Shown: piece after piece, positions 3,685 through 55,873 of the stretch
Numbering within the stretch: position 1 is the first letter of the stretch
How the letters are laid out: every line of letters begins with the position of its first letter
Source of the DNA: an uncultured Candidatus Saccharibacteria bacterium
GTDB taxonomy: Bacteria; Patescibacteriota; Minisyncoccia; Phycocordibacterales; PALSA-1337
Direction of reading: 5' to 3'
Length of the DNA stretch: 64,000 bases
NCBI GenBank assembly: GCA_964543075.1
Contig: CAZIVT010000002.1
Span: 3,089 to 67,088, forward strand
Notes under the pieces: model-generated
Seen by the model: only the letters and a program-made list of their open reading frames with translations
Databases searched by the model: none
Told to the model about the DNA's origin: nothing
Translations under genes and position numbers: made by a program

Positions 3685-3689
3685 ATACT

Positions 3690-7419: not shown

Positions 7420-7448
7420 AAGCTCGCCATACAGGCAAACAAACAAGA

Positions 7449-7475: not shown

Positions 7476-7491
7476 TTCAATGAGCCACTAT

Positions 7492-7887: not shown

Positions 7888-7894
7888 CGGGCAA

Positions 7895-8911: not shown

Positions 8912-8964
8912 GCGGTGGTTTGGTTCATAGAAGTGACCTCACACTTTTATTGACCCCACCTTGC

Positions 8965-9171: not shown

Positions 9172-9201
9172 AGGTTTAACTTTTAGACCTCTATAGTCAT
9201 A

Positions 9202-9219
9202 TTAAGCAAAATTGCTTAA
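9202..9219. promoter_or_regulatory. Operator palindrome O1
   Basis: TTAAGCAAAATTGCTTAA is a perfect 18-bp palindrome in the cro/cI divergent intergenic region. Confidence 0.6.
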
Positions 9220-9243
9220 CTCGTCAATATATCAGGGTGTGGA

Positions 9244-9259
9244 TAAGCAAAGTTGCTTA
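9244..9259. promoter_or_regulatory. Operator palindrome O2
   Basis: TAAGCAAAGTTGCTTA has the same half-sites (TAAGCAA-N2-TTGCTTA) as O1 and lies 42 bp away. Confidence 0.6.
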
Positions 9260-9296
9260 ATCTTTACAATTTTGCTACGATGTACTAAACTGGTCG

Positions 9297-9316
9297 TAAG
9301 CAAGGAAATTAAGCAA
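9297..9316. promoter_or_regulatory. Two direct operator half-sites
   Basis: TAAGCAAGGAAATTAAGCAA contains two TAAGCAA half-sites in direct orientation, just upstream of the CI-like ATG at 9328. Confidence 0.4.
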
Positions 9317-9327
9317 ATTCAACAAAT

Positions 9328-10047: not shown

Positions 10048-10133
10048 AGAACAGGGCTCTCCGCAAGGTGAGCCCTGAAGCTATTTATAGGAGGTTGATT
10101 ATAAAAAATAAGTAAAGAATTTATCAATTAATT

Positions 10134-11717
10134 ATGAACTACTTAATCTACGGCCGTGTCTCTACATCTCGTCAGGCCGAACGAGAATTGAGTATTCCAG
10201 CGCAGGTGAAAGCATGCCAGAAGTACGGCATGGATCACGGTTGGAATCTCGCACCTGATGGCATCTATGAGGAAAAGGGTGAATCAGCTCGAACAGTTGA
10301 ACGTCCACAGCTTCAGAAAATGCTTCATCGGGCAAAGACTGATAACAAGGTCGATGCGATATTGATGCACAAACTTGATCGTATGTGTCGCAACGTTGCG
10401 GACTACGCCGCAATAAAGATGATGCTCAAAAAGCACGACGTCCGGTTGATCTCGGTGGTCGAGCAATTCGATGAGTCTTTCTCCGGAGAGCTTGTCGAGA
10501 ACATCATGTCCTCAATTGCTCAATGGACGTCCCAGAACATCAGCTGGGAGGTCAGGAAAGGCCTTAAAGAGGCCGTAGAGCGTGGCAGGTTCCCCGGATA
10601 CGCTCCAATCGGCTATATGAACGATCGGAAGACCAAATCCCTGATCGTGGATACTGTTCGAGCACCATATGTGAAGCTGGGGTTTGAGCTTTACGCGACA
10701 GGCAAATTTTCTTACTACACGCTCGGTGACGAATTGGCAAAACGAGGTCTCAAGAGCAAGGCTGGCAAACGTGTCTCAAAGAAAGGCGTTGAGCGGATGC
10801 TTCAAAATTCGATCTACTACGGTCTTATAAAAACACGATCGGCCACCAATCAGGCAAACTTTCCGTCACTCATTACCAAGAAGCTCTTTGATGATGTGCA
10901 GGAAATCATCGCACAGCACAATCACTACGCCGATCGGTCTCGCAAGCACACCTTTCCGCTTACCGGCTTCATGCGATGCGGTTACTGTGGCTCGATGTTG
11001 AGTGGTCAGGTGAAAAAGGGTCACTTGTACTATAACTGCTCTCACCGACGTGACGCCAAATGTCCGGAAAGAAAGTACACTCGATCTGAGCTTATTGAGG
11101 AGCAGGTCGTAGCGTATCTCTCACGAGTCGAGTTGCCACCTAAGTTCAAGACGGTCTTGGATGCGTACTTCCAGCACTTCGCAAAAGAGCGTATGGATCA
11201 GGAGGAAAACGAACGCAAGAGCATTAAGCACGACCTGATCAGGGTGCAACAGCAGATCCGTAATATTGTCGTGGATCGCTCAAAACGCATCATTGACGCA
11301 GAGGTTTTTATAAAGATTCAGGACGAGCTTCTCAAGGAGAAAGAGATGTATCAGGATCGCTTGGCCGAGCTCGAGGGTAAGTCAGACAAATTCGTGCAGA
11401 AATTCAATGAGCTTCTCGACTTCACGGATCACGCCGATGAGGTGTATCAAAAGAGTGGCACTAGTCAGAAGCGAACGGTACTAAAGCTTTGCATTGAGGG
11501 ATTCACAGTCAGAAATCAAAAACTGACACCGATATGGACGCCAGTTTTTGATGTTCTTATGGACTTACAATGGTCCAAGTTCGATCCCCCAAAAGTCGGC
11601 GGCAAGGGTTCTAAAACCGCCTCAAAAACCCTTGCCGTACCTAAGGTTCTAACTTGGACATCTGGCGGAGACGGAGGGATTCGAACCCTCGAGGCCCTTG
11701 CGAGCCTAACACCTTAG
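10134..11717 (+). CDS. Large serine recombinase (integrase)
   Basis: Resolvase N-domain LIYGRVSTSRQ with the catalytic Ser, a recombinase domain, the zinc ribbon CGYCGSML...YYNCSHRRDAKCPE and a coiled-coil. The last 56 nt of the ORF overlap tRNA-Ser on the other strand, so the true C-terminus is uncertain. Confidence 0.9.
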   Translation: MNYLIYGRVSTSRQAERELSIPAQVKACQKYGMDHGWNLAPDGIYEEKGESARTVERPQLQKMLHRAKTDNKVDAILMHKLDRMCRNVADYAAIKMMLKKHDVRLISVVEQFDESFSGELVENIMSSIAQWTSQNISWEVRKGLKEAVERGRFPGYAPIGYMNDRKTKSLIVDTVRAPYVKLGFELYATGKFSYYTLGDELAKRGLKSKAGKRVSKKGVERMLQNSIYYGLIKTRSATNQANFPSLITKKLFDDVQEIIAQHNHYADRSRKHTFPLTGFMRCGYCGSMLSGQVKKGHLYYNCSHRRDAKCPERKYTRSELIEEQVVAYLSRVELPPKFKTVLDAYFQHFAKERMDQEENERKSIKHDLIRVQQQIRNIVVDRSKRIIDAEVFIKIQDELLKEKEMYQDRLAELEGKSDKFVQKFNELLDFTDHADEVYQKSGTSQKRTVLKLCIEGFTVRNQKLTPIWTPVFDVLMDLQWSKFDPPKVGGKGSKTASKTLAVPKVLTWTSGGDGGIRTLEALASLTP

Positions 11718-11752
11718 CACGGTGCCGCTTTCGACCACTCAGCCACGTCTCC
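11662..11752 (-). tRNA. tRNA-Ser (GCT anticodon), CCA encoded
   Basis: Manual fold of the reverse complement: acceptor GGAGACG/CGTCTCC, anticodon arm GCACC-GTGCTAA-GGTGT, long variable arm, T arm GAGGG-TTCGAAT-CCCTC, then GCCA. Confidence 0.9.
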
Positions 11753-11992
11753 ATGTAATATTTTCTTAAAGGCAGTGCCACCTTTGTAGCTTTTGACCTT
11801 CTTCTCGAGCATACGAGCCTCTTGTTCAGTGTCGGTCTCACAGTAGCATACCAGTTTCCAAGGACCATTCAACTTGGTAAAAGCACCGCCGGTGCCGCTG
11901 TTGTGCGAGACCAGTCTCTCACTCATGTTTATGGTAGAGCCGACATAATGTTTCCCATTCTTTAGGCTCTTGAGTATATAAACATACGCCAT
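11714..11992 (-). CDS. GIY-YIG nuclease family protein (YhbQ/COG2827-like)
   Basis: MAYVYILKSLKNGKHYVGSTINMSERLVSHNSG...PWKLVCYCETDTEQEARMLEKKVKSYKG is a canonical GIY-YIG pattern. The ORF has no stop of its own, and its last 13 codons are tRNA-Ser sequence with the TAA in the anticodon loop. Confidence 0.8.
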   Translation of the reverse strand: MAYVYILKSLKNGKHYVGSTINMSERLVSHNSGTGGAFTKLNGPWKLVCYCETDTEQEARMLEKKVKSYKGGTAFKKILHGDVAEWSKAAPC

Positions 11993-12061
11993 TCACTTTC
12001 GACCATCCCGCCTTTGGCGGGATAAACTCAGCCACGACCCGCCTTGGCGGGTCACGTCTCC
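11993..12061 (-). pseudogene. Decayed copy of the tRNA-Ser 5' portion (nt 1-26) interrupted by two mini-hairpin insertions
   Basis: The reverse complement reads GGAGACG[TGACCCGCCAAGGCGGGTCG]TGGCTGAG[TTTATCCCGCCAAAGGCGGGA]TGGTCGAAAG. With the brackets removed it equals the first 25-26 nt of the intact tRNA-Ser. Confidence 0.65.
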
Positions 12062-12144
12062 ATCGGTGCGCCGAAGCTCGAAAAGCGTAGGCGACCAGTC
12101 GCCAAGCCATTCTTGCACAAAAGAGGGGAGTAATCAAAGTCATC

Positions 12145-14835: not shown

Positions 14836-14922
14836 TTCAATAGTCAAATAGTACCTAGTCCAATAGTCTCTGCTACCAAATCCAGGGGCAGGGACTATTC
14901 GACTATTGAACTATTTGACTGC
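14836..14922. repeat. Intergenic word-repeat hairpin element H1 (CTACC..GCAG core family)
   Basis: Left arm GTTCAATAGTCAAATAGT... pairs with right arm ...GACTATTGAACTATTTGACT. Central part is TCTCTGCTACCAAATCCAGGGGCAGGG. It lies between the convergent tyrS and comFC genes. Confidence 0.65.
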
Positions 14923-18199: not shown

Positions 18200-18532
18200 A
18201 TGAAGAACAAAACCTCATCAAAGAAGACCCTCGTGAGCTCGGTTATCATCATCGTCGCTGTGGCGATCGCGTATTTCTTCTATATGGGCAACAAGGCCCC
18301 CTCCGGACAGTCTCTACTCGAGACGCAGGTGACGCCTGAGGCCAACGCGGCCAGCTCGCGCATACTGGCTCTGCTCAATCAGATCAGATCGCTCAAGATA
18401 GACACGGAGATATTCGATGATCCGGTATATCAGACGCTCATCGATTATTCGGTCGCCATACCAGATGTCCCTGTCGGCAGGCTCAATCCGTTCGCTCCTA
18501 TACCAGGAGTGCCGATAGAAGGGTCAAATTGA
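18200..18532 (+). CDS. Small membrane-anchored protein of the pilus operon
   Basis: Start moved to MKNKTSSKKTLVSSVIIIVAVAIAYFF. No recognisable family. Confidence 0.4.
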   Translation: MKNKTSSKKTLVSSVIIIVAVAIAYFFYMGNKAPSGQSLLETQVTPEANAASSRILALLNQIRSLKIDTEIFDDPVYQTLIDYSVAIPDVPVGRLNPFAPIPGVPIEGSN

Positions 18533-18616
18533 ACGTTGAAAATTGAACGTTGAAGATTAATCCCTCGGGACTAATAGCCGGAATTTTCAATTTTCAATTT
18601 TCAATTTTCAATGCAA
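18527..18616. repeat. Intergenic word-repeat hairpin element H8
   Basis: Left arm is (AATTGAACGTTGAA)x2 and right arm is (ATTTTCA)x4. They are partly complementary (TTGAAAATTGAA versus TTCAATTTTCAA). Confidence 0.6.
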
Positions 18617-28605: not shown

Positions 28606-30879
<2,274 letters not shown>

Positions 30880-31609: not shown

Positions 31610-33163
31610 ATGCCAATAGACTTACAAAATCTGACGATCGTGAAAGCGCATGAAGCGCTCAAGAAGGGCGAATTCACTTCGGTCGAATTGACGCAGGCGT
31701 ATCTGGATCAAATTGCCGCACGCAACGGCGACATCTACGCATATCTGGAGGTCTTCGAAGACGCGATAGATCAGGCCAAGGAGGCGGATAAGAAAATACA
31801 AGGATTGATCTCGCCAACGGCGGGGTTGACCCCGCCTGTGGCGGGGTTGAAAGAAGGAAAGATTGAAAGATTGAAAGATTCGGATACAGCCGCGGATTTC
31901 CCGATGTTGCTGGGCATCCCGTGCGCGATCAAAGATAATATCCTCATCAAGGGCCACATCGCCAGTTCAGCGTCCAAGATATTGGAGCGATATCATGCGA
32001 CCTACGATGCCACGGTCATCCGCAAGCTCAAGGAGGCCGGCGCGGTCTTCCTCGGACGCACCAATATGGACGAATTCGCTATGGGCGGCTCGACCGAGAA
32101 CTCCGCCTATGGTCCGACTAGGAATCCGCACGATCTCGAACGCGTTCCAGGCGGGACCTCGGGAGGATCGGCAGCTGTCGTAGCGGCGGACATGGCATTG
32201 TTTGCGCTCGGCTCGGATACAGGAGGATCGATCAGACAACCTTCGAGCTTTTGTGGTGTGGTAGGGATCAAACCGACATACGGCAATGTATCACGATATG
32301 GTCTGATGGCGGCTGTTTCGTCATTTGACCAGATTGGTCCGATAGTCAAGACGGTCGAAGATGCCGAAATAGTATTTGATGTGATCAAAGGGAAGGATGA
32401 GAAGGATGGAACAAGTCAAAATTCTCCCGCCTCCGCTCCACTCCGCGAAGCTTCGGCGGGCAAGCAATTCCCAATTCCCAATTCCCAATTCCAACACAGG
32501 CAAGATCGATTGCGTATAGGTATTCCGAAACACTTCTTGAAAGGAGATGGCATCGATCCGGCGGTCGTGAAGGCGTTCGAATCTTCGGTGGAAGCGCTTA
32601 AAGCTAAGGGATATGAGGTGATCGATATCGAGTTACCGAATATCTCGTATTCATTACCTGCATATTATATTCTGAACTTTGCGGAAATATCGTCCAACAT
32701 GGCGCGCTATGATGGTATGAGATTCGGTCTCCATGTAGATGGCGCGGACGGCATCGGCGACTATTTCGAGACGCGCAAGGCGGGCTTAGGCAAGGAGGTC
32801 ATCCGCCGCATCTTGCTCGGCACCTATGTACTCTCGTCAGGATACTACGACGCCTATTACAATCGCGCCAATGCCGTGCGCCGGATGATCACCGAGGACT
32901 TCACCAAAGCATTTCAGTCAGTCGACGTCATCGCCACGCCGACCACGCCATCTCCTGCGTTCAAACTCGGCGAGAAGACGAGCGATCCGGTGGCGATGTA
33001 TCTGGAAGATATATTCACCGTGACGGCAAACCTGACGGGCATGCCGGCCATCTCCGTGCCGATGAAGACCGACGGATTGCCCGTAGGCATCCAGTTCACC
33101 GCGCCACAGGGAGGGGAGAGCGCTCTATTTGAGATCGGAAAAGAGACGGAGATAGTCGAGTAG
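31610..33163 (+). CDS. gatA: Glutamyl/aspartyl-tRNA amidotransferase subunit A with two extra in-frame segments
   Basis: Amidase signature GGSSGGSAA-like GGTSGGSAAVVAA, GSDTGGSIRQP and KDNI. Confidence 0.95.
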   Translation: MPIDLQNLTIVKAHEALKKGEFTSVELTQAYLDQIAARNGDIYAYLEVFEDAIDQAKEADKKIQGLISPTAGLTPPVAGLKEGKIERLKDSDTAADFPMLLGIPCAIKDNILIKGHIASSASKILERYHATYDATVIRKLKEAGAVFLGRTNMDEFAMGGSTENSAYGPTRNPHDLERVPGGTSGGSAAVVAADMALFALGSDTGGSIRQPSSFCGVVGIKPTYGNVSRYGLMAAVSSFDQIGPIVKTVEDAEIVFDVIKGKDEKDGTSQNSPASAPLREASAGKQFPIPNSQFQHRQDRLRIGIPKHFLKGDGIDPAVVKAFESSVEALKAKGYEVIDIELPNISYSLPAYYILNFAEISSNMARYDGMRFGLHVDGADGIGDYFETRKAGLGKEVIRRILLGTYVLSSGYYDAYYNRANAVRRMITEDFTKAFQSVDVIATPTTPSPAFKLGEKTSDPVAMYLEDIFTVTANLTGMPAISVPMKTDGLPVGIQFTAPQGGESALFEIGKETEIVE

Positions 33164-33250
33164 TACTTAGCTACTTGGGTACATAGTTTTCGCTACTAGA
33201 TCTAGATGCAGAAACTATGTAACTGGGTACTATGTAACTATGTAACTATT
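33164..33250. repeat. Intergenic word-repeat hairpin element H4 (same family as H2)
   Basis: TCGCTACTAGATCTAGATGCAGAAACTATGTAACTGGGTACTATGTAACTA. It differs from H2 mainly by a CTAGAT duplication. Confidence 0.7.
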
Positions 33251-33267: not shown

Positions 33268-33882
33268 ATGCCTCCTTCGGAGTTCACAGACCCGTCTCCC
33301 CATATATCGATCGGCCCACCACAGGTCGACATCATGTCGTCTCTAGATACGGCGTATCAAGCTTTTCTCGCGTGGTTGCCGGCGCTGACGTCGATCCTCA
33401 AGTCAGCGTTCGGTGTCTTGGTGGGCCTCTCATTCCCGATATCGCTCTTTTTCCTGATCGTCATCATCTACTGCGTGGAACAGCTCAAGTATATCCGTAA
33501 GAGGGAGGAGCTCATATACGACACGCGGACCGAACCCGCGTATCAGGAACAAGAGGGAGGAGATCCAAAGCTCGCGCATCAGTGGTCGAGCGTGATACGG
33601 CACATCGAGTCTCCCAACGAGAACGATTGGAAGCAGGCGATCCTTGAGGCAGATATGATCCTCGGTGACATCCTGACTGCCATGGGCTATAGGGGAGAGA
33701 GCATCGGGGAGAAGCTCAAGCGGGTCAGTCTCGGCGATATGAAGTCTCTCGACGATGCCTGGGAGGCGCACAAAGTCCGCAATGACATCGCGCATCGACC
33801 TGGTTTCTCCATCAACCAGTATGATGCCCGACAGGTCATCGCTCGATACCGCAAGGTCTTCGAGGAGTTCTACTACATTTGA
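33268..33882 (+). CDS. Hypothetical membrane protein
   Basis: 204 aa with two N-terminal TM segments and a soluble helical C-domain. TATAAT-N8-ATG. Confidence 0.5.
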   Translation: MPPSEFTDPSPHISIGPPQVDIMSSLDTAYQAFLAWLPALTSILKSAFGVLVGLSFPISLFFLIVIIYCVEQLKYIRKREELIYDTRTEPAYQEQEGGDPKLAHQWSSVIRHIESPNENDWKQAILEADMILGDILTAMGYRGESIGEKLKRVSLGDMKSLDDAWEAHKVRNDIAHRPGFSINQYDARQVIARYRKVFEEFYYI

Positions 33883-33885
33883 TAC

Positions 33886-33988
33886 AGATATACGAATGCA
33901 TGCAAATCTACGAATAACTACGAATAGCGCAATCGCCATTCGCAGTTATTCGCATCATTCGAATAATTCGTATATTCGTATCGTGCGT
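33886..33988. repeat. Intergenic word-repeat hairpin element H9 (CGAATA-word family)
   Basis: Long imperfect inverted repeat ...CTACGAATAACTACGAATAGCGC AATC GCCATTCGCAGTTATTCGCATC.... A single-arm relative lies at 31574..31609. Confidence 0.6.
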
Positions 33989-34729: not shown

Positions 34730-34833
34730 CAAGAGAAATTCAAAAATTAAATTTATCCCGCCTTGGCGGGACAGGCAAAAATCAAAAGTGAAAGCGCAAC
34801 GACAGATATTTTCACTATCAGTATACCCTGACT

Positions 34834-35727: not shown

Positions 35728-35814
35728 AATTACCCTAATTTCTAATTGATCTAATTTCTAAACAATGACCAATTGTAGGTTACTCAGAAATTAGGCCAAT
35801 TAGGTCAATTCTTG
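35728..35814. repeat. Intergenic word-repeat hairpin element H6 (CTAATT-word family)
   Basis: CTAATTGATCTAATTTCTA pairs with CAGAAATTAGGCCAATTAG. The left arm GAATTACCCTAATTTCTAATT matches the reverse complement of the H5 right arm. Confidence 0.65.
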
Positions 35815-36510: not shown

Positions 36511-36598
36511 AACTCAAAACTCAAAGCTCAAAAGTCAAAAATAGACCAAATCGAAAAATCAGCGTTAGTTTTGCGTTTTGATTTTTGAGCTTTGAGTT
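36511..36598. repeat. Intergenic word-repeat hairpin element H7 (AAACTC/TCAAAA-word family)
   Basis: Left arm AACTCAAAGCTCAAAAGTCAAAA (36518..36540) pairs with right arm GTTTTGATTTTTGAGCTTTGAGTT (36575..36598). Confidence 0.7.
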
Positions 36599-37563: not shown

Positions 37564-37604
37564 GGATGTCGGTGTAGCCATGTAGGTCCCAATATATGTG
37601 GATA

Positions 37605-37632
37605 AAACCGTTCCGAAAAGGACGGTTTTTTT
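37605..37632 (+). terminator. Rho-independent terminator after ftsX
   Basis: AACCGTTCC-GAAAA-GGACGGTT followed by TTTTTT. Confidence 0.6.
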
Positions 37633-37657
37633 TGGTACAATTACCTGTGTCCGAATC

Positions 37658-40162
37658 ATGCCTGAATCACCTATCATACGCGCATCAAAACACATCGGCA
37701 TGGCGCTCATCATAGCGGCCCTGCTTTATGGCGGGTTGGAGATCGCGCGCGCCGCCGCGCGGAGCTCGCCCTTCTCGATCGGTCAGACGACGGATCCTGG
37801 CGCCGACGCCGAACCCTGCGGCCCGCTGGACGCCAACTGCTTCCCAGCGGTCTATGGCGTCTCCACCACGACGGCCAATACCTGGTCGGCTCTGCAGACC
37901 TTCGGCAACAATGCCTCTCTCGGAGGCGCCACCTTCAATGTCTCATCTCTCGGGACAGGTCAGCTCCTGCAGTACGACGGGACCAACTGGGTCAACACGG
38001 CGACGTCGTCCCTCGGCCTGCCGACGTTCAGCGACCTCTCGTCATATTCGAACTTCGGATACCTCTTTCCCTCCAACGCCACCTCCACCGCGCTCTCATT
38101 CACCGGTGGCCTGACCTCATATGCCTCCACCACCATCGGTGATGGAAGTACCACCGGAGGTCTCACCATCTCGGGTAATGCGACGACGACGGGGGCAGTA
38201 TCACTAGGTTCAACTTTGTCAATTGGAAATGGTTCTGGAGGGTCAGTTCCATCTTTTTCGCCAGGTTCGTTTTCTAGATTGACACTTGGTTCTTCTAAAT
38301 TGCAGGTCGGCGGAGACTATAATGTCCTTTCCCTTAGTTCGGCTATGAGGTTGGCTTGGGGCAGTGCTTCAACTGCTGACCCTACATACAATGATACGTA
38401 TCTTGTTCGTAACTCTGCTGGAGTTGTTGAGATTAATAATGGAACCACTGGGCAATACCGTGATTTACAGATTAGATCGCTTAATCCAACATCAGGCAAC
38501 GTCGGGATAGGGACGACAAATCCAGGAGTATTGCTTAGTATTTCAGGTGCGCATGTTTCAGGACAAGGAATGTTTAGGTTGGATGGCACTACACATGCCT
38601 ATGCAACTTACAATGCGGCAGGGACAAACGATTCGGGATTTTTCTTTAATAGGGGTGGCGCTACAAAATGGTACACAAATAATACAGGAACTACAGATGC
38701 ATTTAATATCGCAAGTCGTGATCCATCGGATAATATTCGATTCACCATACTTCAAAATGGCAACGTCGGCATCTCCACCACCTCACCCTTCGCCAAGCTC
38801 TCAGTCACCGGCTCGGGCACAGGCACCGGCACTGCATTCCAGGTAGCTGACTCGACGAATGCACCGAAGTTCACGGTGTTGGACAATGGGAATGTGGGCA
38901 TCGGAACGACGAGTCCATACACACAACTGGCACTCCAAGAAGGAGCAGGAACAGGTATTAATCTTTCGCCTTCCAACAGGTATATCTCGATTGAAAGTTC
39001 GACGAGTAATTCAGAAATTCGTTTCCTGAGAGACGGTGGGTTGAATGCTCGTGTGCAGTCGTCAGCAGGTACGTCATTAAATATGTCGACGCTCTGGGGG
39101 GGTAATGAGGTGTCAAAGATTGATCTGCAGCGTGGGAGTAACGCTGGCTACATCACCTTATCGACCGGAAGTTCGGGTGTGACAGAGCGTGTGCGCATTG
39201 ATAGCTTAGGTAACGTCGGCATCGGCACTACCACCCCCTGGCGCAAGCTCGCGGTCACGGGTACGGTTGGCTTCGATGGCTTGACGAACGACGGCACAGG
39301 CAACTACCTCTGTCTGACGGGCAATAACGAGGTTACATACAGCGCCACTGCCTGTACCGGCGTGTCGTCGCGTGAGTTCAAACATGCCATAGAGGACATC
39401 GTTGGCGGATTGGACACAGTGCTCGCTTTGAGGCCGGTGTCGTTCGTCTACAACGACGACGTATCACCCAACGATCAATCGACCCATCTCGGATTTGTGG
39501 CTGAAGAGGTGGATGAGATCGACCCGAATCTGGCCGCGTATGATAGTGCCGGCAAGGTGCGTTCGGTGAAGTATCTGGAGTTCATTCCGGTGATCATCAA
39601 AGCGTTGCAGGAATTGAGCGCGCGTATCGATCAGCTGGCGCAGGTGGGCATCGCGGGAATTAAACATATATTCGCCGAAAAGGTGACCACCGACGAACTG
39701 TGCGTCGGAGAGACCTGTGTCACGGAGGATGAGCTCAAAGCCCTGCTCCTGAACGCCGATATCGCTCCCGTCGATCATTCATCCGGCGGATCACAGCAAG
39801 AAGAGCAGAGCGAAGATCAGGAATCTCTCGATGAACAAGAAGATGTTCAGAATGAGGATACCGGATCCGACCAGGAAGTGGATGGAGAGGTCATAGATAC
39901 TGATACCACCGATGGAGAACCTGTTTCCGAACCAGTCGCGGAAGAGCCCGCGGATGAGCTTCAGGGAGATGATGAGAGTCAGGTGGATGACGAACCGGTC
40001 GAGAATGATCCTTTGGAAGATGAGACTACGGATGAGGGTATTCAAGCGGATGAAACGATAGACGAGGAACAGGATGCCGCAACGGATGAGGGCGACGGGG
40101 TGGATCAGGAGATATCGGATCAGCCCGTATCCGACCCCGCGCCGACCGAAGAGACTCTGTGA
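37658..40162 (+). CDS. Tail-fibre-like surface protein with an S74 intramolecular-chaperone domain and an acidic C-terminal tail
   Basis: Signal anchor MALIIAALLYGG. Repeated GNVGIGTT(N/S/T)P motifs. SSREFKHAIEDIVGGLDTVLALRPVSFVYN...HLGFVAEEV...VKYLEFIPVIIKALQEL matches the peptidase S74 autoprocessing domain. The last ~130 aa are D/E/Q-rich. Confidence 0.75.
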   Translation: MPESPIIRASKHIGMALIIAALLYGGLEIARAAARSSPFSIGQTTDPGADAEPCGPLDANCFPAVYGVSTTTANTWSALQTFGNNASLGGATFNVSSLGTGQLLQYDGTNWVNTATSSLGLPTFSDLSSYSNFGYLFPSNATSTALSFTGGLTSYASTTIGDGSTTGGLTISGNATTTGAVSLGSTLSIGNGSGGSVPSFSPGSFSRLTLGSSKLQVGGDYNVLSLSSAMRLAWGSASTADPTYNDTYLVRNSAGVVEINNGTTGQYRDLQIRSLNPTSGNVGIGTTNPGVLLSISGAHVSGQGMFRLDGTTHAYATYNAAGTNDSGFFFNRGGATKWYTNNTGTTDAFNIASRDPSDNIRFTILQNGNVGISTTSPFAKLSVTGSGTGTGTAFQVADSTNAPKFTVLDNGNVGIGTTSPYTQLALQEGAGTGINLSPSNRYISIESSTSNSEIRFLRDGGLNARVQSSAGTSLNMSTLWGGNEVSKIDLQRGSNAGYITLSTGSSGVTERVRIDSLGNVGIGTTTPWRKLAVTGTVGFDGLTNDGTGNYLCLTGNNEVTYSATACTGVSSREFKHAIEDIVGGLDTVLALRPVSFVYNDDVSPNDQSTHLGFVAEEVDEIDPNLAAYDSAGKVRSVKYLEFIPVIIKALQELSARIDQLAQVGIAGIKHIFAEKVTTDELCVGETCVTEDELKALLLNADIAPVDHSSGGSQQEEQSEDQESLDEQEDVQNEDTGSDQEVDGEVIDTDTTDGEPVSEPVAEEPADELQGDDESQVDDEPVENDPLEDETTDEGIQADETIDEEQDAATDEGDGVDQEISDQPVSDPAPTEETL

Positions 40163-40167
40163 ATATC

Positions 40168-41985
40168 ATGAAAGCGATACGCATACAGTTCGTCATGTAC
40201 GCGCTCGCCGCGCTCATCCTCGCCGGATTTGCCGGCGAGGCTTTGGCATCAGAGACGAGTGGTACGATCATCTCTGGTTCGTCATCGACCAGGATCTGCA
40301 AGGATGAGAGCTGTTCGTCATACAGCACCGTCAACTGGAAGCCGACACTCAACGCCAACACTACCGGCGCGACGGCTGTAGCTGTCACCGATAGCGGCGT
40401 TACCGGCTGGCTCTGGGGAGACGCCGTCGGCTGGGTCAACATGCAGCCCACCGGCGCGGGAGTGACCATCGATCCAAACACGGGAGCACTGTCTGGTCAC
40501 GCGTATGCCAATACCGGCTCATGGATTAATTTCAGCCCCACGACTGTCTCCGGCGGAACGCAGGTAGGAGTTACCATCACGTCAGCAGGGGAATTATCCG
40601 GTTGGGCGTATGTCTCCGGAGCCAACGGCGGCTGGATGAAGTTCGACTGCACAGCCGTGGCGACGTGTATCAAGACAGACTGGAGGCCCGTGAGTGCGCG
40701 GTCTTTCGGCGGATCAAGTGAACAGCCTTCTTCTGGCGGAGGCGGATCAGGATCCGTAGCTCGGACCACTACGACCTCGTGGTGGACGTGGCTCATTTCT
40801 CCTCTAGTCCCTCAGTCTCCGACTCTCGTCGTCGATCAGAACGCTCTCATAGCCGCTCCCATCGTACAGCCACAGAACCCCCTCGTGCGCACCATCGACG
40901 CCATCATTCCCGGGCTGATCCCGCAGACGCCTGTCCCGAGCCTGCCCGCACCCGTTATCTCAGCGGAGACACCGCTGTCATTGGCGGCCACATGGAACTT
41001 GGTCCCTGAGAAGCCCATCGCCGACTTCGTGATCGGTCCGCTCCCCGCGGAGATACGCATGCTGGCGATCAAATTCCCCGAGCTGGGAGAGACGTTCCGC
41101 GAGCTCGGCATCGCGCGGGTGAGCGATCTCGACAGGTTGAAGACGGCGCGCTTCGTCCTGCCGGGGCTCGATCAGGTCGAGGAGATACCGACGGACATCG
41201 TCTTCGCCAAGTCCGGCGATCTCATCAACTACAGCCCGTCACTGACTATCGCTGATGACGGTACGCCCGAGCAGCTCGTCAGTACCATCGTCGGCAAGCG
41301 GCTCGACCTGGTGATCAAGCCGGATCATCCGGTCGCGTCCATCGACGGGTATCTTCTGGTCAAGGACCTCGATCGCGTGCAGGCGCGCAAGGCGGTCCCG
41401 GAGACCTCGATACTGGCGTCGGCGCTGACCGCGGCTCTGGCCCTCATCAATCGGCCGACCGAGGCGCCGGCCGCACCGCCGGAAGAGAAGCTCGTGCTGG
41501 AGCGCTTCTCCTATAGCGACCCTGATGGGGATGGCATCTATACTGCCTCCATCCAGGCCCCGCTCGTGCATGGCGAGTACGAGGTCGTATCAGTCGTAGA
41601 ATACGAGGATGTCGCTCTGGGATCCAAGGAGTTCCGCTTGATAGCCGTCGTCGATCCGGAGGGGTATGTCTATCGTCGCAGTGGTGCGGACGAGGCGCGC
41701 ATCGGCGATGCGGTGGTCACGCTGTATCACAAGGATCCGGCCACGGGGACGTTCCTATCATGGGATGCCGGCAAATACCAACAGGTCAATCCGCAACGTA
41801 CCGACAAGAGCGGCACGTACTCGTTCCTCGTGCCGGAGGGGACATACCGGCTCGGCGTGACTGCGTCCGGATATGGCGAGTTCACCGGCCAGGAGTTCGA
41901 GGTGAGGCAGGGTAGGGGCGTCCATGAGAACATTGAGCTCAAGCCGGAGGGGTTCTTCAGGAGATTGTTCGGGATATTCAGGTAG
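40168..41985 (+). CDS. Secreted protein with GW-type repeats and a carboxypeptidase-regulatory-like C-terminal domain
   Basis: Signal peptide. Three repeats of the type GWLWGDAVGWVNMQP / GSWINFSP / GWAYVSGANGGWMKFD. C-terminus TDKSGTYSFLVPEGTYRLGVTASGY. Confidence 0.6.
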   Translation: MKAIRIQFVMYALAALILAGFAGEALASETSGTIISGSSSTRICKDESCSSYSTVNWKPTLNANTTGATAVAVTDSGVTGWLWGDAVGWVNMQPTGAGVTIDPNTGALSGHAYANTGSWINFSPTTVSGGTQVGVTITSAGELSGWAYVSGANGGWMKFDCTAVATCIKTDWRPVSARSFGGSSEQPSSGGGGSGSVARTTTTSWWTWLISPLVPQSPTLVVDQNALIAAPIVQPQNPLVRTIDAIIPGLIPQTPVPSLPAPVISAETPLSLAATWNLVPEKPIADFVIGPLPAEIRMLAIKFPELGETFRELGIARVSDLDRLKTARFVLPGLDQVEEIPTDIVFAKSGDLINYSPSLTIADDGTPEQLVSTIVGKRLDLVIKPDHPVASIDGYLLVKDLDRVQARKAVPETSILASALTAALALINRPTEAPAAPPEEKLVLERFSYSDPDGDGIYTASIQAPLVHGEYEVVSVVEYEDVALGSKEFRLIAVVDPEGYVYRRSGADEARIGDAVVTLYHKDPATGTFLSWDAGKYQQVNPQRTDKSGTYSFLVPEGTYRLGVTASGYGEFTGQEFEVRQGRGVHENIELKPEGFFRRLFGIFR

Positions 41986-44331: not shown

Positions 44332-47300
44332 ATGAAGCATATATGTATCAGTAGCTCGATTGTGGCACGTCTGACCAGGATATCTACCGGGTTCGTGCTC
44401 ATGCTGGCCATGGTTCTGACCAATATCCCCCTCGGATTCATCGTGACGATCGCGAAGAAATTCGATGACCGCAATGTTGTCGACTTGATGTGGCAGGCCC
44501 AGCGCGACTCGTCGGTCGTGGACTCGTTCGGCGTCGAGCAGGCTCATGCATCGGCAGAGAATACGGTCGATGTCACCATACTGGACGCTACCGACGAGTT
44601 CGGACCCTCTCCATCGGTCGTCTTCACGAGCGACCAAGTGGGATATGTTTTCTACATCGATGCGACTGCGCAGGATCTCGCCTACAGCAAGACCACCAAT
44701 GGCGGCACCAACTGGAGCGCGGCTGTCGTCATCGATACCGCCATCACCGGCTGGACCACCCTCGCCGTCTGGTATGACCAGTGGACGCCAGGAGACACCA
44801 CCGGCACGCGCATCCATATCGCCGCCGCGGACGATGCCGCTGACGACATCTACTACACATATCTCGATACCAACGGCGATACCCTCAAGGGCAGTGTGGT
44901 CGCGGCAGTCCCCGGATCGACTACCTTCACCGAAGCGAGCGATGGTCCCCCGAGCATCACCAAGGGAGCAGGAGGAGCACTCTTCATCTCCGGCAACTTC
45001 ACGAACACCGCCGGTGGCAAAGTCTACAAATCGACCGACGGAGCCGGAAACACATGGTCGGATGCCACGCCGACGAGCTGGAGCACAGTGGCGATCGATC
45101 AGATCCAGCTCTTACCTCTCCTCACCGACAACGACATCATCGCCATCAAGGCCCAGACGGCAGACAACACCATCAGATATCGCATATATGACGAGGTCGG
45201 CGACACCTGGGACGGAGCCTGGTCCGCGAGCATCGCCTCGCTCACCGAGAACACCACCTACGACCAGTGGTTCTCGGCCACCATCAGGAAGTCTACCGGA
45301 GACGTGTACCTCGCCTTCGCCAATCAGACCAACAATGCCGCCAACGATATCGCGTTCTGGAGCTTCGACGAGAGCGCTCGTTCGGGCTTCTCCCAAGGAG
45401 CGGATCTCTTCACCAACGATATCAGCGTGATGATGCCCGCTCCGCTCGTCGACGAGAACACGGGAGACATCTACGTCTCCTACCTCCGCGGCACGCTCAA
45501 CTCCGCCATGAATGTCTACTACAAGAAGTCGACTGATGGGGGCGCGAGTTGGGGCGATGAATCCGCGAAGCTCAACGAATTCGCCGATGACCACAAAGGC
45601 GTGCGTACCAATCTCCTCAGCGGGAGTAGGCTCTACGTCGTCTGGTACAACGACGACCTCAACGACATATATGGAAGTACCATCATGGATGGCGCAGAAG
45701 TGTCGATAGACAACGCCTTGACTGATGGTACCGACGAGTTCGGGCCGTCGCCATCATCGGTATTCATCTCTGATCAAGAAGGCTATGTCTTCTACATCGA
45801 TGCGGGTAACGACCTTGTCTATAGGAAGACCGTCGATGGAGGCAAGAACTGGCTCAATCCGGTGATCGTGAACAATGTCATCACCGGCTGGACCACCCTC
45901 GCCGTCTGGTATGACCAGTGGACGCCAGGAGACACCACCGGCACGCGCATCCATATCGCCGCCGCGGACGATGCCGCTGACGACATCTACTACACATATC
46001 TCGATACCAACGGCGATACCCTCAAGGGCAGTGTGGTCGCGGCAGTCCCCGGATCGACTACCTTCACCGAAGCGAGCGATGGTCCCCCGAGCATCACCAA
46101 GGGAGCAGGAGGAGCACTCTTCATCTCCGGCAACTTCACGAACACCGCCGGTGGCAAAGTCTACAAATCGACCGACGGAGCCGGAAACACATGGTCGGAT
46201 GCCACGCCGACGAGCTGGAGCACAGTGGCGATCGATCAGATCCAGCTCTTACCTCTCCTCACCGACAACGACATCATCGCCATCAAGGCCCAGACGGCAG
46301 ACAACACCATCAGATATCGCATATATGACGAGGTCGGCGACACCTGGGACGGAGCCTGGTCCGCGAGCATCGCCTCGCTCACCGAGAACACCACCTACGA
46401 CCAGTGGTTCTCGGCCACCATCAGGAAGTCTACCGGAGACGTGTACCTCGCCTTCGCCAATCAGACCAACAATGCCGCCAACGATATCGCGTTCTGGAGC
46501 TTCGACGAGAGCGCTCGTTCGGGCTTCTCCCAAGGAGCGGATCTCTTCACCAACGATATCAGCGTGATGATGCCCGCTCCGCTCGTCGACGAGAACACGG
46601 GAGACATCTACGTCTCCTACCTCCGCGGCACGCTCAACTCCGCCATGAACGTCTACTACAAGAAGTCGACTGATGGGGGTGCGAGTTGGGGAAGCGAATC
46701 GGAGAACTTGAACAAGGGCGTCGTCGATGACTTCAAGACTCTACGCGGGAACCTCCTGAGCGAAGATCGTCTCTATGCGGTCTGGTACAACGACGACCTC
46801 AACGACATATATGGAAGTACAGTAAACGACGTCTACGCATGGGAGCAGGCCGCGTATAGATTCTTCAACAGCGCCGCCTCCACCGATGTGGGGTCGGCTT
46901 TGGCGAATCAGGATATTCCGGGAGTCTTGGCGAGCGGCGGAGATACGTTCCGTCTGCGCATGCTTCTGCACAATACGGGACAGGCTCCGATCAATAGTGC
47001 CTCCATGAAGCTTCAGTATGCTGAGAAGTCAGGCACATGCGATACGGCTTTTTCGGGCGAGAGCTATGTCGATGTCACTTCATCGACTGATATAGCCTAT
47101 GATGTGGCCAACTCTCCGGCTGACGGAGATGCTTTGACATCCAACGCCTCAGACCCGACGCTCGGCAACAGTGTCGTCAATCAGACCTATGAAGAAGCCA
47201 ATCCCTTTACCAATACACAGGCCATAGTGCCATCGGGACAGGATGGTAAGTGGGATTTCGCGCTGATCGACAACGGCGCGCCGCCCGGTACGAGCTATTG

Positions 47301-48162
47301 TTTCCGTATCGTCTATACTGATGGCAATCTCATCAATCAGTATAGCGTCATCCCTGAGGTCTCTACCGCCTCCGGAGGCAATTCTCCACCCGTCGCTTCG
47401 GATGTCTCCATCGATTCTGATGCGGCCTCAGTGACGCTCATAGAAAGCACGACCAAGGACGTGGTCTGTGTCGCTACAGTCACTGATACGGATGGGTATA
47501 CAGATATTTCATCGGTCACGGCGGATCTCTTTCGGACATCACAGACTGTCAGTTCCGGACTCGATGACAACGATCACTATCAACTCTCAGGGGATAGTCA
47601 ATGCGTGCCTTCCGGTGGAGCGGGGAACAGTGAGACGTATACATGCACGTTCGCGGTCCAGTACTTCGCCGATGCTACGGATACTGGTTCGCCCAATGCG
47701 GCCGATGATTGGACGTGTCGAGTCATGCCCAGCGATTCAGCAGGAGAAGGGACGAGCGCGAGCGATACGATAGAAGTCGACTCACTGTTCGCATTGGAAG
47801 TCACGGCATCCATCGACTACGGGTCTCTCGATCCTGATAGCGATACGGGCTCGACCAATCAACAGGTGACGGTGACTAACACTGGCAATCGCGATATGGA
47901 TCCGCAGGTATCCGGAGGAGATATGGTTTCCGGCATCAATTCTATAGCCGTAGGACAACAAAAATACGCGTCTGCAGGATTCACCTATACGAGCGGTGGA
48001 ACGACGCTCTCCACGACACCGGCGACGCTCGACCTGGCCCTTCCTCAGCGCACCGCCGCGGTCGTCGACGCGCTCGTGTACTGGGGTATCGGCATACTGG
48101 ATGGGACTCCGGGAGGCGGATATGCCGGAACCAACACATTCACCGCTACGTCAGGTATATAA
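44332..48162 (+). CDS. Giant surface protein: two BNR/Asp-box beta-propeller units plus a C-terminal adhesin-like module
   Basis: Asp-box motifs (SKTTNGGTNWS, YKSTDGAGNTWS, KKSTDGGASWG) repeat in two ~379-aa units. The C-terminal ~300 aa are paralogous to the product of 48295..49209. Confidence 0.8.
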   Translation: MKHICISSSIVARLTRISTGFVLMLAMVLTNIPLGFIVTIAKKFDDRNVVDLMWQAQRDSSVVDSFGVEQAHASAENTVDVTILDATDEFGPSPSVVFTSDQVGYVFYIDATAQDLAYSKTTNGGTNWSAAVVIDTAITGWTTLAVWYDQWTPGDTTGTRIHIAAADDAADDIYYTYLDTNGDTLKGSVVAAVPGSTTFTEASDGPPSITKGAGGALFISGNFTNTAGGKVYKSTDGAGNTWSDATPTSWSTVAIDQIQLLPLLTDNDIIAIKAQTADNTIRYRIYDEVGDTWDGAWSASIASLTENTTYDQWFSATIRKSTGDVYLAFANQTNNAANDIAFWSFDESARSGFSQGADLFTNDISVMMPAPLVDENTGDIYVSYLRGTLNSAMNVYYKKSTDGGASWGDESAKLNEFADDHKGVRTNLLSGSRLYVVWYNDDLNDIYGSTIMDGAEVSIDNALTDGTDEFGPSPSSVFISDQEGYVFYIDAGNDLVYRKTVDGGKNWLNPVIVNNVITGWTTLAVWYDQWTPGDTTGTRIHIAAADDAADDIYYTYLDTNGDTLKGSVVAAVPGSTTFTEASDGPPSITKGAGGALFISGNFTNTAGGKVYKSTDGAGNTWSDATPTSWSTVAIDQIQLLPLLTDNDIIAIKAQTADNTIRYRIYDEVGDTWDGAWSASIASLTENTTYDQWFSATIRKSTGDVYLAFANQTNNAANDIAFWSFDESARSGFSQGADLFTNDISVMMPAPLVDENTGDIYVSYLRGTLNSAMNVYYKKSTDGGASWGSESENLNKGVVDDFKTLRGNLLSEDRLYAVWYNDDLNDIYGSTVNDVYAWEQAAYRFFNSAASTDVGSALANQDIPGVLASGGDTFRLRMLLHNTGQAPINSASMKLQYAEKSGTCDTAFSGESYVDVTSSTDIAYDVANSPADGDALTSNASDPTLGNSVVNQTYEEANPFTNTQAIVPSGQDGKWDFALIDNGAPPGTSYCFRIVYTDGNLINQYSVIPEVSTASGGNSPPVASDVSIDSDAASVTLIESTTKDVVCVATVTDTDGYTDISSVTADLFRTSQTVSSGLDDNDHYQLSGDSQCVPSGGAGNSETYTCTFAVQYFADATDTGSPNAADDWTCRVMPSDSAGEGTSASDTIEVDSLFALEVTASIDYGSLDPDSDTGSTNQQVTVTNTGNRDMDPQVSGGDMVSGINSIAVGQQKYASAGFTYTSGGTTLSTTPATLDLALPQRTAAVVDALVYWGIGILDGTPGGGYAGTNTFTATSGI
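44742..45512 (+). repeat. Internal tandem repeat, copy A (identical core)
   Basis: By eye, base-for-base identical to 45879..46649 (offset 1137 bp = 379 codons). The first mismatch is at 45513 (T versus C). Confidence 0.85.
45879..46649 (+). repeat. Internal tandem repeat, copy B (identical core)
   Basis: See copy A. The flanks of the two units are clearly diverged. Confidence 0.85.
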
Positions 48163-53956: not shown

Positions 53957-53995
53957 GCCTCTTGGAATTTCCGTCATTTGGTGTATACTCCACCC

Positions 53996-55873
53996 ATGCG
54001 ACGGAAGAAGCGCCCGAATGGCCGGAATAGCGTGAAGAAAAGTTCAGCGAAAAGCCATTCGCGGGGCGCTTCAAAGCCCTCTCGTCCGAGACATGCTCAC
54101 AAGTACATCTTCGTCATCGGCGGCGTGATGTCCGGCGTCGGCAAGGGTATCGCCACCTCTTCCATAGGCACGCTGCTCGCCGCCAAGGGCTGGACGGTCA
54201 ATCTGGCCAAGGTCGACCCCTATCTCAATGTCGATGCTGGCACCATGAATCCCACTGAGCATGGGGAAGTCTTCGTGCTCGATAGCGGCCTGGAGACCGA
54301 TCAGGACATGGGGAACTATGAGCGCTTCCTCAACCGCGACCTCACGGCCGATGACTATATCACGAGCGGCATGGTCTATCGCCACGTCATCGAGAAGGAG
54401 CGCGCGCTCGGCTACGGCGGCAAGTGCGTCGAGGCCATCCCGCATATCCGCGACGAGATCGTGCGACGCTTCGAGCATAGCGCCAAGGTCAACAAGTCCG
54501 ACATCTCGATCATCGAGATCGGCGGCACCGTCGGCGACTATCAGAACATCATGTTCATCGAAGCGGCTCGTGTGCTCAAGATCCGCCATCCGCAGGATGT
54601 CATCTTCATCATGGTGTCGTATCTGCCGGTGCCGGGCGCGCTCGGCGAGATGAAGACGAGGCCGACCCAGAACGCCGTGCACCAGCTGGCCTCATACGGA
54701 GTGACCGCCGATATCATCATCGCGCGCGCCAGCATCCCGCTCGACGAGCGCCGCAAGGAGAAGATCGCTACCGCTTGCAACTTGCCGGCCACACGGGTGG
54801 TTTCTGCTCCGGATATCAGGAGCATCTATGACGTCCCGGGCAATTTCGAGCATGACCGTCTCGCCGATACTGTGCTCGAAGCGCTCCATGTGCCCGCGGG
54901 CGAGCGATCGGGTCCGCTCATCGATGACCCACTCATCTCCATGAAGTCGTGGAAGAAGATGGCCGCCGGCGTCGGCCGACCGCTCGATGAGGGCGAGCGT
55001 CCGCTCAATATCGCTATCGTCGGCAAATATTTCAATACGGGGGATTTCGTCCTCACGGATGCATATTTATCGGTGCTCGAAGCGATCAAATTCTCTGGTC
55101 ATGAGGTCAAGGTCAAGCCGATCATACATACGATCAATGCGAGAGACTTCGAAGAGAAAACTCAAAACTCAAAACTCAAAAGTCAAAAATCCGGTGCAGA
55201 TTCGGACCCTGGTCTTTTTCCGTATGCCCAACTCGACGAGATGGACGGCGTGATCGTGCCCGGCGGGTTCGGCGAGAGCGGTATCGAGGGCAAGCTCAAC
55301 GTCATCAGGTATTGCCGCGAGAATGGCATCCCGTACTTCGGCCTCTGCTACGGCATGCAGCTCATGACCATCGAGTACGCGCGCAATGTCCTCGGTCTCT
55401 CCGGCGCGCAGACGGCCGAGATCGATCCGGCCGCGCCGCATCTCATCATCGATATCATGCCCGATCAGAAGAAGAAGCTCCAGGACGCCGACTATGGCGG
55501 CTCGATGCGCCTCGGTCTCTATCCGGCCAAATTGCTCAAAGGATCGATCGCTCAAGAGGCTTATTCGCAGTTCGCCGGCAAGCCTCTGCCCAAACCGACG
55601 ACCATGATCAAGGAGCGCCACCGCCATCGCTACGAGGTCAATCCCAAATATGTCGAGCGGCTAGAAAAAGGCGGCCTCGTTTTTTCTGGAAAATCACCCG
55701 ACGGTCGTCTATGCGAGATCGCAGAATTGCCGCGAGATCGACATCCCTTTTTCCTCGGTACGCAGTTCCATCCGGAGTTCCTGGCGCGTCCGCTCCTGCC
55801 GCATCCGCTCTTCACCGAGTTCCTCAGGGCGGCAAAATGGAGGAAAAGATCTCAAATAGAGAAAGGGAATTAA
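53996..55873 (+). CDS. pyrG: CTP synthase with a basic N-terminal extension and one extra in-frame segment
   Basis: KYIFVIGGVMSGVGKG, a GATase domain with GLCYGMQ and HRHRYEVN. Start set at the ATG 6 nt after TATACT. Confidence 0.93.
   Translation: MRRKKRPNGRNSVKKSSAKSHSRGASKPSRPRHAHKYIFVIGGVMSGVGKGIATSSIGTLLAAKGWTVNLAKVDPYLNVDAGTMNPTEHGEVFVLDSGLETDQDMGNYERFLNRDLTADDYITSGMVYRHVIEKERALGYGGKCVEAIPHIRDEIVRRFEHSAKVNKSDISIIEIGGTVGDYQNIMFIEAARVLKIRHPQDVIFIMVSYLPVPGALGEMKTRPTQNAVHQLASYGVTADIIIARASIPLDERRKEKIATACNLPATRVVSAPDIRSIYDVPGNFEHDRLADTVLEALHVPAGERSGPLIDDPLISMKSWKKMAAGVGRPLDEGERPLNIAIVGKYFNTGDFVLTDAYLSVLEAIKFSGHEVKVKPIIHTINARDFEEKTQNSKLKSQKSGADSDPGLFPYAQLDEMDGVIVPGGFGESGIEGKLNVIRYCRENGIPYFGLCYGMQLMTIEYARNVLGLSGAQTAEIDPAAPHLIIDIMPDQKKKLQDADYGGSMRLGLYPAKLLKGSIAQEAYSQFAGKPLPKPTTMIKERHRHRYEVNPKYVERLEKGGLVFSGKSPDGRLCEIAELPRDRHPFFLGTQFHPEFLARPLLPHPLFTEFLRAAKWRKRSQIEKGN

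Follow-up and report, generated by a model that had tools for sequence, protein, structure and literature searches.

The gatA gene in a 64-kb window (the whole stretch of 64,000 nucleotides that we analysed, from contig CAZIVT010000002.1 of an uncultured Candidatus Saccharibacteria bacterium) carries an insertion in the variable linker of its product, which we refer to as insertion 2. The insertion consists of a GC-rich segment followed by four tandem copies of the word CAATTCC, and the GC-rich segment appears, on comparison with other genomes, to be a copy of a unit of ∼30 nt that recurs in many of them, and not a private hairpin. We consider that repeat DNA was inserted and grew by slippage at the DNA level, was tolerated in a permissive disordered loop and is translated as linker, and we put the probability of this account at roughly 0.7. 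The extra residues of GatA come from DNA changes, with no sign of an evolved protein feature, and both parts of the insert most likely do no more than add translated linker. All within-genome figures given here cover the window.

The host gene (31610..33163, plus strand) is listed as an intact open reading frame (ORF) of 517 aa encoding Asp/Glu-tRNA amidotransferase subunit A. We assigned its product to GatA on the basis of the amidase domain (PF01425, carried by all 120 GatA homologues), full-length similarity to solved GatA chains in the PDB (E=3e-136 to 1e-113) and the presence of gatC upstream; the ligA-gatC-gatA order is kept in three other loci (L001, L003 and L004). The closest database proteins were GatA sequences from metagenome-assembled genomes (MAGs) of Patescibacteria/Paceibacteria, with identities of no more than 70%.

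The variable linker (D263..K307; 32396..32530, plus strand) connects the DGT(S/T) motif to the IG(I/V)P strand and is 45 aa long. In an alignment of 120 GatA proteins, the segment from D-x-K-DGT(T/S) to IG(V/I)P(R/K) had a modal length of 29 aa, so that the linker of the window protein exceeds the mode by 16 residues and its nearest relatives by about 20. A neighbour-joining (NJ) tree placed the protein beside P0005, P0006, P0007, P0011, P0016 and P0026, in which the DGT-to-IG spacer measures 17–23 residues as against 37 in the window GatA, and both the GC segment and the word array were absent from these six neighbours. An earlier sequence-only reading of this DNA had proposed that the linker was 13–20 residues longer than usual, and had named equal length in close orthologues as the observation that would count against it; the measured lengths agree with the proposal. 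Since neither the nearest relatives nor the modal form has the insert, it is specific to the lineage of the window. The segment is translated in frame as DEKDGTSQNS-PASAPLREASAGK-QFPIPNSQF-QHRQDRLRIGIPK, a translation that includes SQNSPASAPLR and QFPIPNSQFQHR. Its 45 residues can be accounted for by ∼25 native residues (the length taken from the 25–27-aa D-to-(K/R) segments of P0005 and P0007), 13 contributed by the unit and 7 by three extra heptamers.

We modelled the window GatA with AlphaFold2 (AF2), using the orthologue alignment. The core was predicted with confidence (mean predicted local distance difference test score (pLDDT) 82.9; predicted template-modelling score 0.88), and insertion 2 was modelled as coil, with a pLDDT of 45–56 across the insert, falling below 50 at residues 280–293, and above 90 in both flanks. 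The loop is predicted to be disordered and lies exposed to solvent, away from the conserved amidase core.

On the plus strand, insertion 2 has as its left flank an A-rich word CAAAATTC (Q-N-S; 32417..32424), the counterpart of which in L003 is GAAAATTC. The GC unit that follows (32426..32464; 39 nt, 74% GC) is read as PASAPLREASAGK, has CCCGCC at 32426–32431 and GGCGGG at 32455–32460, and can be divided into the canonical 30-nt unit CCCGCCTCCGCTGAAGCTTCGGCGGGCAAG and 9 additional bases. This internal addition, CCACTCCGC (P-L-R; 32438..32446), is an imperfect copy of the preceding CCTCCGC, and its removal restores CCCGCCTCCGCTGAAGCTTCGGCGGGCAAG, which is exactly the TGAA form of the unit (30/30 match). 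The heptamer array (CAATTCC)x4 occupies 32465..32492, is exact and is read as QFPIPNSQF, passing through all three phases, and the remaining native linker (QHRQDRLR; 32493..32515) leads to the conserved IGIPK strand. Tandem Repeats Finder (TRF) reported the array as period 7, 4.0 copies and 100% matches over 32465–32492, confirming the four CAATTCC words that had been noticed inside gatA. The arrangement proposed at the same time needs a correction: CCCGCC and GGCGGG are both present, but GGCGGG is followed by CAAG and then by the array, and not directly by GCAATTCC.

Neither part is expected by chance. A 14-mer of two words gave 3 matches in the array, as against 0.34 expected, a number reached in 0 of 100 shuffles, and CCCGCC-N(0-30)-GGCGGG occurred 7 times in the window (0.08 expected). 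The word CAATTCC was found nowhere else in the window, and the array was therefore probably generated locally; the identity of the four heptamers, though they are read in three phases, indicates that the array is either young or being homogenised. The right flank GGGCAAG-CAATT... also occurs in L083 (GGGCAAGCAATTAACAATTG), and as this locus has the same GCAATT continuation, the CAATT word may travel with the unit or be seeded by its 3′ end. The TGAA form is the one present in L083 (Roizmanbacteria), around 2118–2145, where it is followed by AGCAATTAACAATTG, with the GCAATT continuation seen in the window gatA.

Folding did not distinguish the insert. The CCCGCC/GGCGGG stem was no more stable than same-composition shuffles (RNA in context, z=+0.41; unit DNA, z ∼0), and the four canonical variants of the unit likewise did not fold, as RNA or DNA, better than shuffles (best for CGAG, z=-1.26). 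Because of this result, we dropped a stable hairpin as the defining property of the unit. An Rfam scan of the whole window returned tRNAs only. No inverted partner arm (a GGAATTG array) was found for insertion 2 in the window, and the possibility of a hairpin of the intergenic type was consequently rejected. An H-type pseudoknot pairing CCCGCC with GGCGGG and GGCTT with AAGCC, examined by hand, was rejected because a loop of 1 nt cannot bridge a 6-bp stem. Short-word BLAST of insertion 2 against the window recovered sub-significant fragments only.

The unit is a discrete sequence dispersed at the DNA level, with a frame bias. We scanned one genome per species with the pattern CCCGCCTCCGC-N(0-14)-GCTTCGGCGGGCA, and this exact-pattern scan detected the unit in at least 120 species genomes, with only 1 copy in the 64 kb of the window. 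Its consensus, CCCGCCTCCGCyrArGCTTCGGCGGGCArG, is ∼30 nt long; the main form is a 28-mer, and the 4-nt centres among the matches listed were CAAG (37), CGAG (18), TAAA (15) and TGAA (8). The matches listed came from many classes of Patescibacteria and from Acidobacteriota, Nitrospirota, Planctomycetota, Verrucomicrobiota, Bacteroidota and Elusimicrobiota, and all of them were in MAGs or single-amplified genomes (SAGs). The flanks of the copies were unrelated between loci; the consensus ran on 3′ of the unit as R-G-C-(C/A), and none was seen on the 5′ side. The unit carries arms of 6 bp (CCCGCC/GGCGGG), and CCC is repeated at the clean sites L005 and L051/L095. Miniature inverted-repeat transposable elements have terminal inverted repeats and a target-site duplication; the repeated CCC could be read in that way, but the consensus 3′ of the unit, RG-C-(C/A), may equally well belong to the unit itself. 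Six viral contigs in IMG/VR carried the unit, and no match was found among the PLSDB plasmids. INPHARED gave one partial match, in an Escherichia phage (25/32 nt, 96% identity, E=6e-3), which is borderline and which we judged to be due to chance. Literature searches for the DNA string of the unit, for its peptide, or for the Candidate Phyla Radiation (CPR) plus repeats found no description of it.

The copies are biased in frame, although inspection of the sequence shows the unit to be free of stop codons in all six frames. Frame calls were made in 65 low-GC loci only, and here 44 of 52 clear in-ORF copies were in one frame, F0, which reads P-A-S-A-(K/E)-A-S-A-G-(K/R) (p=1e-26); 47 of the 52 were in the sense orientation (p=6e-10), and the peptide added was often exactly 10 residues long. 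The GC content at third codon positions is 0.8–0.9 in the unit and 0.38 in the host ORFs, and the fixed synonymous choices of the unit have a chance of ∼2e-5 per copy under host codon usage. Codon choice so foreign to the host argues for copied DNA, and not for a peptide that arose by convergence. The same loci held 19 further copies with 6 or fewer substitutions (for example, PAFAKATADK), or ∼23 per Mb. The unit therefore has the properties of an in-frame dispersed repeat: it occurs at many unrelated loci, it is present or absent among orthologues, and it keeps the frame at a permissive site. From the flanking peptides, read by eye, we take its hosts to include SecA, GyrB, UvrD/PcrA, RuvA, ThyA, LepA, LeuRS, AspRS, AlaRS, RecJ, RNR and CarA. 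CysRS is the only host that was confirmed by a family search.

The GatA linker itself has acquired inserts independently in many other lineages. Unrelated extra sequence was present at this linker in many of the 120 orthologues, and on the NJ tree inserts of the word type fell in at least six scattered clades and those of the GC type in at least four. In L003, the GatA of which is 65% identical, a perfect (AAAATTC)x4.9 array occupies the loop of insertion 2, expanded at the spot of the window's left A-rich word, and (AAGATTC)x5.1 lies at a second site, that of insertion 1 in the window. Both arrays grow from native codons (AAGATTC from K-I-Q-D-S, AAAATTC from E-N-S), and L004 holds a decayed array of the L003 type in the same GatA loop. 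In L005 (GatA 64% identical) it is the GC unit that has entered, as a clean insertion of CCCGCCTCCGCCGAGGCTTCGGCGGGCAGG that gives KK-PASAEASAGR-PVIGVP, at a point in the loop different from that of the window copy.

Insertion 1 of the window gatA (31805..31880, plus strand) has GGCGGGG/CCCCGCC hairpin motifs, with arms of 15 nt that are 87% complementary, followed by (TTGAAAGA)x4. It lengthens its segment to 55 aa, compared with modal lengths of 26 or 31, and was modelled by AF2 as coil, with a pLDDT below 50 at residues 77–92. It is of the same kind as insertion 2.

We then consider heptamer arrays across the window. A census of exact arrays (at least 2.5 copies, periods 4–12) was compared with shuffles, and showed five arrays of period 7 (0.07 expected) and two of period 8 (0 expected); at periods 4–6 and 9–12, exact arrays were not enriched in the window. 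Of the five exact period-7 arrays, four are within ORFs (two in ligA and one each in gatA and pyrG). The arrays within genes stand alone (two in ligA, two in gatA and one in pyrG), and the array words are A/T-rich 7–8-mers that differ from locus to locus. Inverted-arm arrays occur at six intergenic sites, with arms of 24–49 nt that are 73–96% complementary and are built of tandem 7–9-nt words (14833–14920, 18526–18612, 33168–33248, 33881–33982, 35728–35812 and 36511–36598). The gatA array had been described as having the same composition as these arms, and its A/T-rich word, together with the enrichment of periods 7 and 8, places it with them. Long imperfect hairpins were observed in many of the intergenic gaps examined, at six sites between 14.8 and 36.6 kb, and such word hairpins may act as terminator-like or RNA-stability elements.

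The array in pyrG (CTP synthase, 631 aa; 53978..55873) is an in-frame (AAAACTC)x4.6 at 55157–55194. The degenerate tail of this array, CTCAAAAGTCAAAAAT, is identical to a stretch of the left arm (36511–36543) of the intergenic hairpin at 36511–36598, and its end, CAAAAATCCGG, coincides with that of the ligA insert. These identities hint that copying between loci is not limited to GC units and extends to entire arrays.

GC hairpins do appear to insert in this genome. The ligA gene (28609..30879) encodes 756 aa, compared with 683–746 in its syntenic relatives, and has three insert sites (29391–29470, 30424–30459 and about 29150–29230). One ligA insert combines AAAACTC words with two CCCGCC..GGCGGG hairpins, and the sequence at 29396–29435 is a copy (95% over 40 nt, E=3e-13) of an element that lies 3′ of tRNA-Thr (34740–34779). 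Another site holds (AAATCCG)x5, and in L003 the site homologous to the third has an array of its own, of the word GATTCAG. A 27-nt core of tRNA-Ser (11728–11754) recurs at 11996–12063, where it is split by hairpins of 21 and 20 nt, TCCCGCCTTTGGCGGGATAAA and ACCCGCCTTGGCGGGTCACG, the second with CACG duplicated (12037–12056). The window therefore holds a filled and an empty version of the same core, for a simpler type of hairpin. The region 11663–12065 comprises, in order, tRNA-Ser on the minus strand, a small GIY-YIG ORF (11714..11992, minus strand) and the second 27-nt tRNA copy.

Under the reading that we prefer, three steps would have produced insertion 2. A copy of the GC-rich ∼30-nt repeat would have entered the 5′ part of the fast-evolving gatA linker, running in sense and in the P-A-S-A-(K/E)-A-S-A-G-(K/R) frame. 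This copy would later have gained the 9-nt local duplication. The 7-nt word adjoining the 3′ end of the unit (GGGCAAG-CAATT...) would then have expanded by replication slippage to four exact copies, through the same process that would fill the intergenic regions of this genome with arrays of 7/8-nt words. As the net addition is a multiple of three and falls in an exposed disordered loop, the product would be translated as a flexible linker of low complexity and tolerated. The order of these events, slippage as the cause of the expansion, the mode of copying of the unit and the neutrality of the peptide are points that we infer.

A number of observations weigh against this reading, among them a result from CysRS. 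In L036, the unit lies just before the GRPGWH motif of CysRS. The site is short in 75 of 120 orthologues, including the closest (77–80% identity), and some 20 more distant orthologues (63–72%) share the insertion. We compared L036 with four other CysRS sequences from Patescibacteria (L132–L135), which had been found by protein similarity and not by DNA. The 4-fold degenerate sites of the unit were identical in 63 of 67 pairwise comparisons, compared with 32–51% elsewhere in CysRS, where the gene is near saturation at synonymous sites. A piece of junk in a loop does not explain such conservation. In addition, the unit is not depleted from ORFs, which hold 85% of the copies and 84% of the DNA; depletion would be expected if insertion were random and the peptides were filtered afterwards. 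Taken together, these two results indicate that constraint or homogenisation acts on the nucleotide sequence. Other difficulties concern the process itself. Strict arrays lay within 70 nt of only 6 of the 120 unit copies among the matches listed; the idea that the unit always carries arrays was rejected for this reason, and we regard the link between unit and array as real but loose. No strain variants were found, as the protein cluster had one member, the identical-protein look-up was empty and two metagenome scans were empty. Slippage was not observed, and we infer it, as we do mobility; the only indirect evidence for slippage is the pair of arrays, perfect in L003 and decayed in L004, at one GatA site. 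No gene that could mobilise the unit was identified, and the 64-kb window holds one canonical copy. Finally, the window copy is not followed by the usual CC(C/A), and its right boundary is ill-defined.

These observations lead to the alternative that the GC unit is a signal at the nucleotide level, such as a hairpin in RNA or DNA or a site bound by a conserved trans-acting factor, and that the peptide is a by-product. Its account of the origin of the insert overlaps with ours, and the two differ in why the unit persists. The 4-fold identity in CysRS, in a gene otherwise near saturation, favours such a role, as do the arms CCCGCC and GGCGGGC, which are invariant in the five CysRS copies, the bias to the sense strand (47/52), the presence of the same sequence across many phyla and the lack of depletion from ORFs. 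Set against this, folding was no better than in shuffles, no Rfam family was matched and no partner molecule was identified. The window copy is broken by 9 nt, and the unit is decayed or split in other CysRS orthologues. The unit is also sparse, with 1 copy in the 64 kb of the window and a density of ∼23 extra copies per Mb in the loci examined. On balance, we consider it unlikely that the unit persists as a nucleotide signal.

Purely local growth of the native linker by slippage or duplication, with nothing imported, would be in keeping with the hypervariability of the linker across the clade, the restriction of CAATTCC to the gatA site, the origin of the L003 arrays from native codons and the 9-nt local duplication within the unit. 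It is difficult to reconcile with the GC part, which without its 9 nt matches at 30 of 30 positions a 30-mer found at 120 or more unrelated loci, is found also in the distant GatA of L005 and is of a composition foreign to its AT-rich hosts. We consider it improbable that growth was local throughout.

Even less probable is an adaptive protein loop that gives GatA a new interaction or regulation. In its favour, an essential gene has kept its ORF intact around the in-frame insert, and many proteins carry PASA(K/E)ASAG(K/R) in the same frame. The segment is predicted to be disordered, however, and the nearest relatives lack it; the three-phase reading of the heptamer leaves no conserved peptide repeat, the unit is hosted by proteins of unrelated function, and the same codon choice everywhere points to copied DNA. 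Least probable of all is an artefact of assembly or binning, or a contingency switch, prone to frameshifts, by which gatA would be turned on and off: the matches listed are all in MAGs or SAGs, with none in PLSDB and one borderline partial match in INPHARED, and each single slip of 7 nt would shift the frame, but the reading frame is preserved, filled orthologous sites with diverged flanks come from different studies and assemblers (L039/L040, L051/L095 and L132–L135), decayed copies of the unit exist, and gatA, which belongs to the core of translation, shows no sign of being disrupted.

A more speculative possibility, which we entertain tentatively and think somewhat doubtful, is that the unit represents a new kind of very small element, spread over many phyla, written in sense and in one frame into loops of essential proteins and maintained at the nucleotide level. 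It might be maintained by an enzyme that copies it in trans, by selection for a hairpin or by its use as a binding site. Copies of such an element would often be followed by a Pro or Gln codon, and in Patescibacteria the unit might also seed or attract heptamer arrays. Insertion 2 of gatA may in that case be a slightly decayed copy of an active system, and not inert junk.

The insert resembles several known repeat systems. Rickettsia palindromic elements (RPE) are in-frame, translated repeats found in unrelated housekeeping ORFs at positions considered compatible with the fold (PMC10969869). The unit is similarly dispersed, in frame and translated in unrelated ORFs, and the AF2 coil agrees with such a position. 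RPE, however, are about 100–150 bp long, are confined to Rickettsia and form ten families, whereas the unit is ∼30 nt long (39 here) and is found in many phyla; it has no sequence relation to RPE, and its hairpin potential is at chance level. Membership in the RPE was rejected on the grounds of unit size and the Patescibacteria host. The small dispersed repeats (SDR) of Nostoc and its relatives, reportedly described by Elhai et al. in 2008 (Genome Res 18:1484; cited in PMC3116915), are said to be 21–27 nt long and to lie in coding, RNA and non-coding contexts; their insertion was reportedly deduced from comparison of orthologues, and they are said to be associated with tandem heptamer repeats. 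The unit differs from SDR in sequence, host phyla and length, and in its single-frame bias and synonymous-site conservation.

The window arrays resemble the heptamer simple sequence repeats (SSR) of Xanthomonas and Nostoc and the short tandemly repeated repetitive (STRR) sequences of cyanobacteria (PMC2670836, PMC4692102). Heptanucleotide SSR are over-represented compared with other periods, and polymerase slippage has been proposed as their origin (PMC4692102); STRR are tandem 7-bp words that often form inverted pairs or hairpins between genes (PMC2670836). The period-7 excess and the intergenic inverted pairs of the window recall these systems, and the gatA array has more than the three head-to-tail 7-nt copies that define them, in a window where period 7 is over-represented. 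It departs from them in being intragenic and having no inverted partner. More generally, the described cases are mainly intergenic and use a single genome-wide word, whereas the window has exact arrays inside ligA, gatA and pyrG and A/T-rich words specific to each locus.

Repetitive extragenic palindromic (REP) sequences are short, GC-rich, imperfect palindromes, near-identical at many loci, that are mobilised by REP-associated tyrosine transposases (RAYT) (PMC3116915). Like REP and REPIN sequences, the unit is short, GC-rich and imperfectly palindromic, and is nearly identical between loci. In contrast to REP sequences, which are extragenic, lineage-specific and often arranged as inverted doublets, it is mostly intragenic, single and found across phyla; no RAYT gene was seen among the window ORFs scanned, which covered part of the window. 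We rejected membership in this family because the unit is mostly intragenic and single and folds with z ∼0. DNA uptake sequences (USS/DUS) are short motifs conserved at the nucleotide level that occur in ORFs, favour certain frames and fall in less conserved parts of proteins; they are lineage-specific and occur about once per kb. The unit is far rarer and arrived by insertion, not by substitution, and we discarded an uptake-signal reading, for which the unit is much too sparse. The insert behaves like RPE, Nostoc SDR and heptamer SSR, and is not a member of the RPE or REP families, on the grounds of its size, host range, intragenic position and hairpin stability no greater than chance.

The consequence for protein evolution is that central enzymes of translation and replication in Patescibacteria (GatA, LigA and PyrG here, CysRS elsewhere) are being lengthened by repeat DNA and not by protein-level innovation. 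Judging by the flanks read by eye, the same may extend to SecA, GyrB, UvrD and other aminoacyl-tRNA synthetases. This has a bearing on the annotation, alignment-based phylogeny and structure prediction of Patescibacteria lineages, and the 7-nt arrays in essential genes bear on estimates of mutational load. An identical in-frame sequence of 28–30 nt that occurs across phyla also offers a searchable handle on how tiny elements spread and persist.

Other features of the window were observed in passing. Positions 1–12000 form a block of lower GC content (0.42–0.49, compared with 0.52–0.60 elsewhere) that encodes a Cu-type P-type ATPase, a multicopper oxidase, a LexA-like HTH/S24 repressor and a large serine recombinase abutting tRNA-Ser, and the block looks like an integrated mobile element. 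At 44332–48162 there is an ORF of 1276 aa with no Pfam match and an internal tandem duplication of ∼1.14 kb, the copies of which are 75–91% identical at a spacing of 1137–1140 nt. Two ORFs of 854 and 608 aa lie at 37598–41985; their only domains are Peptidase_S74 (endosialidase chaperone) and CarboxypepD_reg, and their products may be surface or tail-fibre-like proteins.

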